A stretch of 64,000 nt of DNA from Bacilli bacterium (GCA_017651165.1 JAGCDH010000021.1:10758-74757); one strand, 5' to 3'. Positions 14,446-19,782 are shown, numbered from the stretch's first letter. Numbers and translations are program-made. Notes: generated from the letters alone by a model not told the origin.

Positions 14446-17400
14446 TTACTTATTACTACTACGAATCGCTTCAATAAGAGCTTGTTTTTCAAGTGGTCTA
14501 TGTAAATAGTAACCTTGCATCAAAGCGGTTGGATCGATTTCTTTTAATAAGATGTATTGGTCGATGTTTTCGACACCAACGACAGAGGCTTTTAAGCCAA
14601 CGTTTCTAATGTTGTATAAAAGCGTCTTAATATCGTTATATCTTTGACGGTCACTATCGATGTGGTTGACGATATTACGGGAGATCTTGACTTCGTCAAA
14701 GCCGATGTCTTTTAAGGCTTGTAAGGAAACGAATCTACCAGTGTATTGGTCACACACCAAGACGATATGTAAAGCGTTTAATTGACGGGCAATACTTGGG
14801 AATTCCTTAATGTGGTTAGAAACATCGCTTTCTGGAATTTCAAATGATAAGAAGTTCTTTGGTAGGTTCACATTATCAATGTAGTCTTTAATATCTTTAA
14901 AGAAGTTCTCATCGGTAAAGAATGAGTAATCGGTATTTAAACTCAAACGTTTAAAGCCTAAGTTATTAAAGATAACGGAACCATATTGTTGCCACATACC
15001 AGCGATGATATCAAGTAAGGCATTAGAAATAACACCAATCTTATCGTGTTCCGCAGCGACGTTAACTAATTCATCTGGACGGATAGCGATATTAGTGAAA
15101 CCATCGGTAATACGTAAGAGAAGTTCAGCGCCATAAATACGTTTACTTCTCGCATCACACATTGGTTGAAGCATGACGTTGAATGTTTTCTTAGCGAATG
15201 AGCTTTCAATAACGGCGAGTAAGAATTCTTCTCTGTTCGCACTTCTGGAATAGTTACTATCATCAAAGTAGATGAAGTCTTTATTGATTTCGTATTTACC
15301 ACGGTTTGCAAATTGATCCGCTTGTTTCAAAACGCTTTGAGCGTTTGGATAGGAACGTGGATAACCAATTGGTAAGTATGTGAGTCTGACTTGGATGTGG
15401 TTATCATCTGCACCACTTAAGACCTTTTGGCCAATGCTAAAGATCTTTTCACATTCACTGATGATGTCGACTTGACCATATTCAGTGAAGAGTAAGGCTA
15501 AAGTCTGGCTGTTGAAGAAATAGATATTTTCTAAGTTGTTGTGTTTCTTTTTGATGCTAGTCACAAAGTGACGGATAACATTTAAATAGCCTTCTGAACC
15601 ATAGACCGTCACTAAGTCACTTAAATTATCAATACGGAGTAATAATAAGTAACCTTTGCCATTGATTTCGTAGCAGTTATTTAAAGCTTCGACAAGGGAT
15701 GGATAAGAATTGACGAGTAAGTCAGGATTATATCTTTGATCGCTGTCTTCTTCATGGATATTCTTTAAGGTCATAACGTGATATGGACTATCACGATTTT
15801 CTAAGACCAAAGATGTCTCATAGTTGAAGTTTTTAATCTTACTAACTTTCTTATTTCCTGTTAAAAGAGGGCAGTCGTGACATGGTTTATCTAGACCATA
15901 TAAGACTTTATAGCACTTCTCGCCTAACTCAATCTTGTTAGAGAAGAAGTCTTTCATTGTGTTAGAAGTTCTTAATAAGCGATAGTCACCATTAGAGATA
16001 CGATATGTCGCAAATTCGGAAAGCTTTAACAACGATTCGATTTCTTGCATGGAGTTACGCACTTGTTCGTCACGACGTTCGCCTAATAAGATCGCGGCGA
16101 TCTTGTCACATAAGACCACAAGGGCTTCTTGGATATAAGAGTCGATATGGAATTCTTTATCGCGGTTGAAGAAATAGATTGCGCCTAAAACGACATCACC
16201 ATCGTTAAGTATGTAGAACATACCACTTTCTAGGCCCACTCTGTCGAGGTGACGGCCTAAAGAGTTATTCGCATTATTTCTAAATGAGAAGTAATAGGAA
16301 TCATCTTCATCTTTCGCCGCATTCATCGCTTGGACGAATTCTTTTTCAATGTAATTGGTGTTACTTAAAGGTGGTAATTTCTTATCTTGTAATTGATAAG
16401 AGAAGAAATAGTTTTCTTTGACTTCGTCATAAGAAATGATACCAGCGTAGTCTAAGTTAAAGTATAGACGAACCGAACGGATAACCTTTTCCACTTCTTC
16501 TAAGTTTTTAGAACTGTTCTCTAAAGAGAGATTCAACTTAAGAAGAGGTGCTAACATTTTGGACATGGTATTTAAGTTCATGGAGTTCTTAAGAATCATG
16601 TTGTCCGTTAAGGATGTTAAACGGTTTGGTAAGTAGAAGTTAATATTTTCGCCTTGGCGTTTGGCATACTCTAAGTCTGGGAACATTTCATGGACATCAG
16701 AGAATGGATAACAAACGACTGAGAAGTGTGCGGCCAAATTAGCGATACCTTCTGGGGTACGTTTACTAATAGTCGCACTCTTTAAGACCATTTCTAATTG
16801 CTCACGCACTTTACTGACAGAGTCAATACGTGGGAAATAGAAGAATAATGACTTTCTATTATCATTAACGATATAGACGACATTTTGGTAATTACCAAAG
16901 TACTTACGCATTAATGTTAATAAGTAATCGATTTCTTGGTTATTTAAGGTGTCATCATTGAGCTCGTAATATAGTTCCATCAATAAGTTACGATAGTTTT
17001 GTGACGCGAAGATAATACGCTCAATGTTCTTCTTGAAACTTCTTAAATAAACAACGTTATGTTCAAAGTCGAAATAATCTAAAGCGATATGAGAAAAATC
17101 AACCGAATTAGCGATTAATGTGGAAGTATCTAATTCTTTCTTTAAAGTTTCCACCTCTCTATTCAAGGAAGCGAATTCTTCATAGGAGTTAGTTGGATAA
17201 TTTTCAAGAACGCTTTCGTTATCGGTCATGTTTCTTAAATTGGAAAGAGTAACATCATATAAACCCTTCACAAATAAGGCATTGAATTTACGAGATGTGA
17301 AAACGGAGAAAAAGATATAGGCGCCTGAGAATAAAACACCAAAAGCGATGAGTAAGTAGAAATAAAGCATCATCCCTGTTTTGATAAACAGGATAGAAAA

Positions 17401-18253: not shown

Positions 18254-19782
18254 TTATTGACGTCCTCCTTCTTTTCGAAAGGATTATTAGCTAAGAACTT
18301 TTCATAATCCTCTTTACTCAAGGCTTGGGAATAATAGAAACCTTGAATGGTATCGCATTTATTTCTTCTTAAGATTTCGACTTGATCTTTGCTATCAACA
18401 CCTTCAGCGATAACTTCCATGCCGTTAACTTTACATAAGCCGATTAAGAACTTAACGATTTCTCTAGCTTTTGTATCTGTGGCGATGTCATCAATAAAGG
18501 ATTTATCAATCTTGACTGCGTCAAATGGAATCTTCTTTAAGTTACCAACGTTAGAGAAACCAATACCAAAGTCATCCATCAAAACGCGGATGCCTCTGTC
18601 TTTAAGTTTCTTAATAATGGAAATAGATAAGAACTGGTTGGCTTGTGATGTCGCTTCAGTAATTTCAATTTGGATTAAATTGGTTGGAATATCATAGTCT
18701 TCCATAATCTTGATGATCGTATCAAGGAAGGAAGCGGAATAGAACTCATATAATGAGAAGTTAACGGAAACTGGTAAGATACGTTTACCTCTTCTTCTTA
18801 AGTCGTTTAAGTTTTCACAAACCTTTCTTAAGACGAAGGTATCGATTTCGTGCGTTAAACCAACAGCTTCCGCTTTACCTAAGAACTTAGTTGGGGCTAA
18901 TAAGCCGTATTTTTCACTCTTCCAACGAATTAACGCTTCGGAAGAGATAAATCTCTTGTTTAGTAAATCATATTTTGGTTGATAGTAAACAACGAACTCG
19001 TTCTTTTCTAAAGCTTCTTGTAATTCATCAATATCGTTAGTGTTGACGGTCTTACGGAAGGATGGTTGATAGAAAGTCACGGTTTCGAAGTTTCTTTCGG
19101 AGAACTCACGAGCGATCTGCGCATTTTCAATGTGTTGGACGAGAGTTTCTTCGTCATTAACCATCGCAATACCAAAGAATGGTTGGACAGAGACGTGACG
19201 GCAGTTCGCGTTCGCGTATTCGTAAATCTTACGTGAAAGAGTTTCACAAATGGTATTTAAGGAACCTTCGTTTTGTTTGAAGGTATAGATTAAGAATGTG
19301 CCGTGATCAAAACCAAAGATTAAGTCACGTTGCGCCATATCCACATCTTTATATAATTCGTTTAGATAGCTAGCGATAAAGCCATTGATACCAAAGACTT
19401 CTTGGTTACGGTTGACGTTTTGAGAAACCGCTAAGTTGGAGAAAGAGAACGCGATAACGTGTTGTTTTTGTTTACCACGTAATTTAGCGCGGTTATAAAC
19501 TGTCTTTTGGAAGAGGTAAAGGTTATAGAAATCATTCTTCTTACCTAATTGTGTTTCGTTTTCAATTTCAATAGTGTTTAACAAAGTTACCTTATTGACA
19601 TAGTAGCCTAATATGAAGATGAATAAAGCGGCTAAAAGGATTGGTAAGACCACGAAGATGATGTTGCAAATGACGTTGCTTTTAAATAAGCGTCCAATAA
19701 TAACAGGCACTAAAAACACCGCAAAGAATGTGAATAGGAAACCAACAATGATTGTTAATATCGCAAGTTTCTTTTCTTTCAT
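18250..19782 (-). CDS. Membrane protein with a degenerate GGDEF-like domain plus an intact EAL domain (probable c-di-GMP phosphodiesterase)
   Basis: Two TM helices. GGDEF position reads GFDHGTF. The EAL blocks are all present: YYQPKY...SSEALIRW, VSVNFS, IEITE, MDDFGIGFSN, VKIDKSF, IAEGVD and QGFYYSQAL. GGAGG SD. Confidence 0.75.
   Translation of the reverse strand: MKEKKLAILTIIVGFLFTFFAVFLVPVIIGRLFKSNVICNIIFVVLPILLAALFIFILGYYVNKVTLLNTIEIENETQLGKKNDFYNLYLFQKTVYNRAKLRGKQKQHVIAFSFSNLAVSQNVNRNQEVFGINGFIASYLNELYKDVDMAQRDLIFGFDHGTFLIYTFKQNEGSLNTICETLSRKIYEYANANCRHVSVQPFFGIAMVNDEETLVQHIENAQIAREFSERNFETVTFYQPSFRKTVNTNDIDELQEALEKNEFVVYYQPKYDLLNKRFISSEALIRWKSEKYGLLAPTKFLGKAEAVGLTHEIDTFVLRKVCENLNDLRRRGKRILPVSVNFSLYEFYSASFLDTIIKIMEDYDIPTNLIQIEITEATSQANQFLSISIIKKLKDRGIRVLMDDFGIGFSNVGNLKKIPFDAVKIDKSFIDDIATDTKAREIVKFLIGLCKVNGMEVIAEGVDSKDQVEILRRNKCDTIQGFYYSQALSKEDYEKFLANNPFEKKEDVNK

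Follow-up and report, generated by a model that had tools for sequence, protein, structure and literature searches.

Why should a bacterial operon end in two membrane proteins with EAL domains, placed on either side of a protein that resembles a nucleosidase? The question is raised by a stretch of DNA from a Bacilli bacterium (GCA_017651165.1, JAGCDH010000021.1:10758-74757). The whole stretch analysed, hereafter the window, is 64,000 nucleotides (nt) long and comes from contig C20 of a 1.14-Mb metagenome-assembled genome (MAG), which is 79% complete and has a G+C content of ~37%. The three genes lie between positions 14446 and 19782 of the window, all on the minus strand, and all coordinates below are those of the window.

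18250-19782, minus strand: gene of a 510-aa membrane EAL protein, with a transmembrane (TM) hairpin, a degenerate GGDEF domain and an intact EAL domain (open reading frame; Pfam EAL, 228.7 bits; RocR positions).
17507-18253, minus strand: gene of a 248-aa protein with the fold of 5'-methylthioadenosine/S-adenosylhomocysteine (MTA/SAH) nucleosidase (MTAN), lacking the catalytic residues (AlphaFold2 (AF2) model; Foldseek; residue table; junction).
14446-17505, minus strand: gene of a 1019-aa membrane protein, with a TM hairpin, an alpha/beta domain, a GAF-like domain, a Cys-bearing PAS-like domain, a degenerate GGDEF domain and a degenerate EAL domain (open reading frame; orthologue starts; AF2; Foldseek).

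Our reading, to which we give a probability of about 0.6, is that the three genes are a control module for cyclic di-GMP (c-di-GMP) at the 3' end of a riboswitch-gated fibre operon. An earlier reading of the sequence alone (the original prediction) had described the three open reading frames, an ATGA overlap and a 1-nt gap, and direct reading of the frames and junctions confirmed all of these. The stop codon of the 510-aa gene and the ATG of the 248-aa gene share the 4-nt ATGA overlap (AAATGATT). The junction between the 248-aa and 1019-aa genes is TAA-g-ATG, with a GGAGG 8 nt upstream of the 1019-aa start. The orthologues of the 1019-aa protein begin at this same ATG; a TTG-extended frame of 1040 aa found no support among them and was rejected. 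A SipW-like gene lies 2 nt upstream of the 510-aa gene. At the other end, a convergent TrkH-like gene ends 5 nt past the 1019-aa gene, and therefore the operon ends there, as had been proposed.

The 510-aa EAL protein and its MTAN-like neighbour

The 510-aa protein matched the Pfam EAL family (PF00563) with 228.7 bits against a gathering score of 31.3, and the solved structures closest to it are active phosphodiesterases (PDEs) such as MorA, MucR, DosP and TBD1265. Three parts could be recognised in it.

19579-19776, minus strand: TM hairpin, about residues 3-68, two helices with a very short loop (Kyte-Doolittle scan).
19048-19560, minus strand: degenerate GGDEF-like domain, with DHGTF at residues 159-163 (hhalign; no Pfam GGDEF match).
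18325-19029, minus strand: intact EAL domain, residues 252-486 (Pfam; PDB relatives; RocR positions).

An intact EAL domain was defined by RocR residues E175, N233, E265, E268, D295, K316 and E352, and c-di-GMP recognition by RocR Q161, R179, D296 and D318 (PMC2952852). The seven catalytic positions are E282, N341, E373, E376, D403, K424 and E460 in the 510-aa protein and were intact in 24 out of 24 orthologues. All four recognition residues are also present, so that the complete series reads Q268, E282, R286, N341, E373, E376, D403, D404, K424, D426, E460 and Q480. The spacings between residues are identical to those of RocR (+14, +32, +30, +20, +36), and the mean pairwise identity of this EAL domain among the orthologues is 0.73. 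Residues ~75-245 align to the GGDEF domains of the same genome (hhalign E 3.8e-5, 99 columns), which places DHGTF, within GFDHGTF, at the GGDEF position; no GGDEF match was found in this protein by the Pfam scan. The original prediction, that this protein keeps every EAL catalytic block, reads GFDHGTF for GGDEF and is probably a dedicated PDE, agrees with these results. Since every sequence mark is present, we consider the 510-aa protein very probably an active, membrane-anchored, dedicated c-di-GMP PDE.

The protein thus has the fold and all the catalytic and recognition residues of the class I active EAL PDEs, such as MorA and RocR of P. aeruginosa and PdeA (CC3396) of C. vibrioides, and like PdeA it carries an inactive GGDEF domain ahead of the EAL domain. 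Unlike these three, it has nothing but a TM hairpin as its anchor, its GGDEF domain is too diverged for Pfam, its gene is always followed by the MTAN-like gene, and the gene sits inside an operon controlled by a c-di-GMP riboswitch.

The 248-aa protein scored below the cut-offs of both PNP_UDP_1 (PF01048; 20.9 bits against 25.1) and the NCBIfam model TIGR01704 (30.4 bits against 73.8). It aligned with MTANs from end to end. With its AF2 model (predicted local distance difference test score 85, predicted template modelling (TM) score 0.86), the top 50 Foldseek matches were all MTANs or futalosine hydrolases, among them 4qez, 3bl6 and 1nc1 (E 5e-19, TM score 0.76-0.86, 13-19% identity). This supports the collinearity with Pfs/MtnN noted originally. 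In E. coli numbering, the Met173/Glu174 positions are N180/N181 in this protein and the Ser196/Asp197 positions are E203/R204; the Asn and Arg that had been read at Glu174 and Asp197 were found again (N181 and R204).

A profile search of the MTAN-like family covered 1.84 billion representatives. It gave 62 clusters at E<=1e-30, and true MTANs started at ~1e-23. At each alignment column, 56 members of the family were then set against 53 true MTANs, as follows.

Glu12 (A-M-x-x-E): conserved in true MTANs; the MTAN-like family has G-x-x-x-D-D-(I/V)-L-Y, with Asp at Glu12 in 91%.
GD of SGDxF: Asp in 98% of true MTANs; Asn or other residues in the family.
Phe151: 100% in true MTANs; 34% in the family.
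Met173: 96% in true MTANs; variable in the family.
Glu174: 100% in true MTANs; Glu in 50% of the family and Asn in the window protein.
Arg193: 92% in true MTANs; Lys in 80% of the family.
Ser196: 100% in true MTANs; variable in the family.
Asp197: 100% in true MTANs; variable in the family (R, S, T, C, Y, G and others).

Most of the ribose and purine contacts of MTANs are gone across the family, while the signature G-x-x-x-D-D-(I/V)-L-Y, D179 and K200 are conserved features of its own. The loss extends family-wide and beyond the two residues named at first, and on proper alignment the protein does not show the catalytic residues of a normal MTAN. The same loss weakens the idea that the 248-aa protein binds a nucleoside or nucleotide. 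In other genera (genomes G036, G038 and G056) a canonical MTAN of 110-179 bits coexists with the MTAN-like gene, which indicates that the MTAN-like protein is not the MTAN of the cell in disguise. From these sequence comparisons, the 248-aa clade appears to be a separate, non-catalytic branch of the MTAN fold rather than a nucleosidase. It shares with Pfs/MtnN the fold, the full-length collinearity, the HDxD..GQxPG loop and an acidic residue at Glu12. Unlike Pfs/MtnN, it lacks Asp197, Ser196, Met173, Phe151 and the GD of SGDxF, possesses the N-terminal GxxxDD(I/V)LY, and was never seen outside the fibre operon.

Two other matches were considered in this connection and rejected. The second PNP_UDP_1 match in the genome (G000:C1:46364-46957) is a DeoD-type phosphorylase and not a housekeeping MTAN, and the MTAN match in the relative G041 is an ordinary MTAN in an unrelated context. 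In the window's genus, the only matches in a search for an MTAN were the MTAN-like protein of the operon and the DeoD-type purine nucleoside phosphorylase (PNP). In G026, the MTAN-like orthologue (L046:9506-10102) is 198 aa long owing to an internal deletion of ~45 residues, corresponding to ~120-165 of the window protein, so this segment is dispensable there.

Of the other 22 genomes of this genus, 21 carry the MTAN-like gene, with 65-76% identity, and its range extends to other genera and to at least one further family of the same order. The related records are MAGs assigned to "Bacilli" or "Erysipelotrichaceae" from uncultured rumen, horse, goat and reindeer gut material, plus Clostridium sp. 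CAG:288. In a collection of species-representative genomes there were 32 loci. All 32, wherever the contig was long enough, had the order McrB-like ATPase, 830-aa McrC-like partner, SipW-like gene, EAL gene, MTAN-like gene and big EAL gene, and the 4-nt overlap of the EAL and MTAN-like genes was kept in every one. A more distant sample consisted of eight MTAN-like representatives (E 1e-21 to 1e-75) on metagenome contigs, two of which were too short to judge. The six contexts with enough upstream sequence all showed a ~505-aa AAA gene, a SipW-sized gene and a 476-521-aa EAL gene overlapping the MTAN-like start by 4 nt, and in five of them a DUF2357 protein was encoded between the AAA and the SipW-sized genes. 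The slot of the third gene was occupied by a ~1000-aa EAL protein, by a homologue with a decayed EAL motif (GASLSLS) or by one of three further kinds of protein described below.

The conserved core is thus the EAL-MTAN-like pair, and the third gene varies. Two EAL proteins bracketing the MTAN-like protein, the arrangement originally described, is true of the window, but the constant unit is the pair, since the third gene is replaced or decayed elsewhere. We infer that the 248-aa protein is most likely a partner subunit of the 510-aa PDE, with a regulatory or scaffolding role. A literature search on nucleosidases with EAL domains, on nucleosidase pseudoenzymes and on RFN20 with c-di-GMP found nothing relevant; as far as this search shows, an obligate pairing of an EAL protein with a dead MTAN is undescribed.

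One orthologue of the third gene, that of L063 (G020:C10, 89-3303), is split in two open reading frames of 393 and 685 aa, by a frameshift in a pseudogene or an assembly error.

The 1019-aa protein

The 1019-aa protein matched Pfam EAL with 104.3 bits. In a Foldseek search its AF2 model (predicted local distance difference test score 80) matched DosP over ~970 columns, as well as the GGDEF-EAL tandems of MorA, PA0861, LapD and FimX, with target-normalised TM scores of 0.77-0.85 to the EAL domains of FimX. Its layout is a TM hairpin (11-94), an alpha/beta domain (~140-295), a GAF-like domain (~350-450), a long helix, a PAS-like domain (~498-582), a GGDEF domain (596-760) and the EAL domain. The parts with defined positions are as follows.

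17293-17478, minus strand: TM hairpin, about residues 10-71 (hydropathy; model helices 11-43 and 46-94).
15868-15924, minus strand: invariant Cys motif GEKCYK..LYGLD.PC.DCPL (C531, C542, C545) in the PAS-like domain (invariant columns in alignment A2).
15226-15720, minus strand: degenerate GGDEF domain, residues 596-760, signature NSQTL (hhalign; Foldseek).
14494-15204, minus strand: degenerate EAL domain, residues 768-1004 (Pfam; orthologue alignments; RocR positions).

Twenty orthologous EAL domains of the 1019-aa protein were aligned against the 24 active ones; alignment A2 holds 13 orthologues. Q780, E794 (in E794-L-L-L-R798), R798, N857, E889, E892, D919, K940 and Q997-G are kept and are invariant or nearly so. 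The DDFG region reads CDQYTG, in which the first Asp (D919) is retained and the second (RocR D296) is Q920, or Asn or Met in distant orthologues. KID reads KIS, with S942 for RocR D318 (elsewhere Ala, or Asp in one orthologue). The Glu that serves as catalytic base (RocR E352) is V976, and Val was found at this position in 20 out of 20 orthologues (13 out of 13 in A2). The base sits 36 residues past the Lys, at E460 in the 510-aa protein and V976 in the 1019-aa protein, which agrees with the K316-to-E352 spacing of RocR (PMC2952852). The conserved E979 is the second Glu of EGVE and not the catalytic base. The numbering of TBD1265 also matches the assignment of the base to the first Glu of EGVE.

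The features first read here, CDQYTG and KIS along with the retained E(LL), N, ExxE, K and Q, all hold. The remaining "E" that had been listed as kept, however, is the second Glu of EGVE, with V976 at the base, so that the alignment of 20 orthologues shows more loss in this degenerate domain than was first seen. No other part of the protein is as well conserved as the EAL domain, with its mean pairwise identity of 0.56 against 0.33-0.52 elsewhere, and this domain is therefore in use and not decaying within the window's clade. As judged from its residues, the 1019-aa protein is probably a c-di-GMP receptor or scaffold and not an enzyme, its EAL domain probably binding c-di-GMP without cleaving it.

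In the model the two TM helices are joined by a 2-residue turn, and neither a HAMP domain nor an extracytoplasmic domain was found by hydropathy, model or Pfam scan. The "sensor" region of ~700 aa is wholly cytoplasmic. Residues 596-760 align to the GGDEF domains of the same genome (hhalign E 3e-4 over 130 columns), and a "GGDEF-like" reading of the N-terminal alpha/beta domain found no support (residues 130-300, hhalign E 0.21). A Pfam scan of 13 orthologues found only EAL, plus weak GGDEF matches in three of them, and no GAF or PAS in the sensor region; the GAF-like and PAS-like labels rest on the secondary structure of the model and on the full-length Foldseek match to DosP. The Cys motif of the PAS-like domain may be a metal or redox site. 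Its C-x10-C-x2-C pattern is also present at L041:10535-12670 and L100:6726-9602; it was found both in distant homologues and in a GGDEF protein of unrelated architecture beside the same module.

The degenerate EAL domain and the tandem fold matches fit the original comparison with LapD and FimX. The protein is not built like LapD, since it has a short TM hairpin, no outside domain and no HAMP. Its degenerate GGDEF-EAL tandem matches the structures of both LapD (P. fluorescens, V. cholerae) and FimX (P. aeruginosa, Xanthomonas), and like them it lacks catalytic residues, keeps much of the pocket and is linked to a surface-structure system. LapD, however, has a periplasmic output domain between its two TM helices and a HAMP domain, and FimX has a REC domain, none of which was found in the 1019-aa protein. 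Unlike either, the 1019-aa protein keeps most of the metal ligands, its losses being largely those of the base Glu and the second Asp. It also has additional GAF-like, Cys-PAS-like and N-terminal alpha/beta domains, and its c-di-GMP binding is a prediction from residues.

A proposed c-di-GMP control module and its alternatives

The operon in which the three genes lie is headed by a riboswitch.

30294-30368, minus strand: c-di-GMP-I riboswitch aptamer at the operon head (Rfam RF01051, 47.4 bits against a gathering score of 35).

No two neighbouring genes from 30213 to 14446 are more than 53 nt apart, and the stretch between 30200 and 14446 holds no strong terminator. This is consistent with the original suggestion that the three genes stand under a riboswitch sensing the same class of ligand, with which they would be co-transcribed. 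A terminator-like hairpin (30300-30272) starts in the last 7 nt of the aptamer match, and this overlap, the usual layout of a ligand-ON switch, suggests that the riboswitch is ON with ligand. No Pfam-detectable GGDEF domain is encoded on the window's contig. All nine GGDEF matches of the genome are on other contigs, in keeping with the early remark that the window has no diguanylate cyclase. At least six of the nine have an intact GG(D/E)EF, which indicates that the genome makes c-di-GMP, and there are seven EAL matches.

We propose that the operon makes SipW-processed, TasA-like fibres with a McrB-like ATPase ('CoCoPALM' type) and that c-di-GMP turns it on through the c-di-GMP-I riboswitch. 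The 510-aa PDE, transcribed with the fibre genes, would then lower c-di-GMP and so feed back on its own operon; this feedback would be negative if the riboswitch is ON with ligand. The 248-aa protein, a putative non-catalytic descendant of MTA/SAH nucleosidase that is translationally coupled to the PDE, would act as its partner subunit. The 1019-aa protein would be a membrane-anchored, cytoplasmic multi-domain sensor whose EAL domain binds but cannot hydrolyse c-di-GMP, and it would relay the c-di-GMP level together with GAF-like and Cys-PAS-like inputs to the fibre machinery. A bolder version is tentative and, on balance, doubtful. In it, the MTAN-fold pseudoenzyme is a new kind of EAL PDE partner that gates c-di-GMP breakdown at the membrane in response to a small molecule or to the state of the fibre machinery, forming with the dead-EAL sensor a three-part complex that times the TasA-like fibres.

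Several observations speak against one part or another of this proposal. The slot of the third gene can hold an unrelated 956-aa protein, a convergent gene for a PAS(Cys)-GGDEF(RIGGDEF)-EAL-like protein (L041:10535-12670, minus strand) or a gene for a multi-TM PAS-GGDEF-HD protein (L046:10180-11985, plus strand). In the 1019-aa EAL domain only two recognition residues are kept (Q780 and R798 for Q161 and R179), Q920 and S942 replacing D296 and D318, which weakens the case for c-di-GMP binding. The homologue with the decayed motif has GASLSLS for GAELLLR, so binding may be neither the original nor a necessary role. For the 248-aa protein, no fusion of an MTAN-like domain with an EAL domain was found, and no canonical MTAN above the TIGR01704 cut-off was found in the 23 genomes of the window's genus, which leaves some room for an unusual enzymatic role. 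The P1 helix of the riboswitch is weak, and its ON sign is tentative. As for fusions, the long proteins matching the MTAN-like profile were tried as candidates and rejected, being tandem canonical MTANs.

The least unlikely of the alternatives is that c-di-GMP is no longer bound by the EAL domain of the 1019-aa protein, which would act only as a protein-protein surface, as in YdiV or CsrD, the protein being a scaffold or a sensor of another signal. The lost equivalents of D296 and D318 fit this idea, as do the distant homologue, which retains the Cys-PAS and other domains without the ExLxR motif, and the unrelated protein that occupies the slot in another lineage. But within the window's clade Q780, E794, R798, N857, D919, K940 and Q997 are invariant or nearly so down to ~30% identity, and the EAL domain is the best-conserved part, a pattern that fits a pocket still used. 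We regard this alternative as unlikely.

It is also conceivable that the MTAN-like protein serves fibre export or assembly, for instance by acting in the cytoplasm as an adaptor for the SipW-like peptidase or for the McrB-like ATPase, with no role in c-di-GMP signalling. Its gene was found only in these fibre operons and always after the SipW-like gene. However, the gene directly next to it and coupled to it is in every case that of the EAL protein (4-nt overlap) and not that of the peptidase, so an adaptor role of this kind seems quite improbable.

There is little chance, in our judgement, that the 1019-aa protein is still a PDE, slow or conditional, with another residue as base and with sensor domains that switch its activity on. 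Six of the seven catalytic positions are kept and invariant, the first Asp of DDFG included, and the architecture is like that of sensor PDEs such as DosP. Against this, Val takes the place of the base Glu in every orthologue, Gln, Asn or Met that of the second metal-site Asp, and loop 6 reads QYTGRFVS in place of DFG(T/A)GYSS. Moreover, an intact PDE is already encoded two genes upstream. EAL domains without the base Glu are classed as PDE-inactive (PMC12900916). The residual activity for which the original prediction left room is less likely than it allowed, since V976 replaces the base, although the first Asp is indeed kept.

The 248-aa protein could be an enzyme with new chemistry and a rebuilt active site, acting on a nucleoside or nucleotide such as a guanine nucleotide product of c-di-GMP breakdown; 80-95% of the family conserve D10/D11 (at Glu12), D179 (at Glu172) and K200 (at Arg193), half of it retains Glu at the Glu174 position, and the window's genus has no canonical MTAN, but unconserved residues stand in place of the general acid Asp197 and of Ser196, neither the purine-binding GD..F nor Met173 has been retained, and other genera with the MTAN-like gene have a normal MTAN too, so that we give this idea scant credence.

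The reading of the three genes as a control module can be set beside what is known of such operons. An association of GEMM-I riboswitches with c-di-GMP turnover genes was reportedly noted already when the riboswitch class was first described. As in those operons, a GEMM-I aptamer lies upstream of an EAL enzyme here and would give autoregulation; unlike in those operons, ~10 kb separate the aptamer from the enzyme gene, which lies where a structural operon ends, beside the genes of a probable receptor and a pseudo-nucleosidase. The paper that names the CoCoPALM system makes no mention of EAL, c-di-GMP or nucleosidase-like components (Bell et al. 2024). What the two appear to share is an McrB-like ATPase anchored in the membrane, together with a DUF2357/McrC-like protein and a gene of the signal peptidase family, and the tentative assignment made here rests on weak AAA_5 and SipW matches in the window (a 512-aa protein with a weak AAA_5 match and a TM segment, and the SipW-like protein with a weak SipW match) together with DUF2357 in related loci. 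Compared with the published system, the tail of EAL, MTAN-like and EAL genes is an addition.

Active and degenerate EAL proteins are familiar, and the EAL parts of this module add members to known kinds. What appears to be new is the obligate, translationally coupled pair of an EAL PDE and a dead nucleosidase-fold protein. Uncultured Bacilli of the gut and rumen carry this pair throughout a whole order, each time within an unstudied fibre system, probably of the CoCoPALM type. In the bolder version of our proposal, this would be the first PNP/MTAN-fold protein recruited into c-di-GMP signalling. If the proposal itself is right, it would add to the metabolic enzyme folds that have taken on a signalling function. 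It would also offer an entry into the two-level control of a Gram-positive surface fibre by c-di-GMP, through the riboswitch and, at the protein level, through a module of enzyme and receptor. For annotation, PF01048 matches in these genomes should not be named MTAN.

Other features of the window

No defence match was found by PADLOC for the three proteins of the module. The membrane-anchored AAA protein of the operon (23204-24742, minus strand) matched the PADLOC candidate-defence model PDC-M26A (E 1e-40), which fits a McrB-like ancestry. A second c-di-GMP-I aptamer (42858-42932, minus strand) heads the minus-strand set 41900-37329 and perhaps also the gene of a 1744-aa repeat protein (32021-37255). 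A COG3943 RNA was matched by Rfam with 102 bits at 50382-50488 on the minus strand, upstream of a 317-aa open reading frame (49361-50314).

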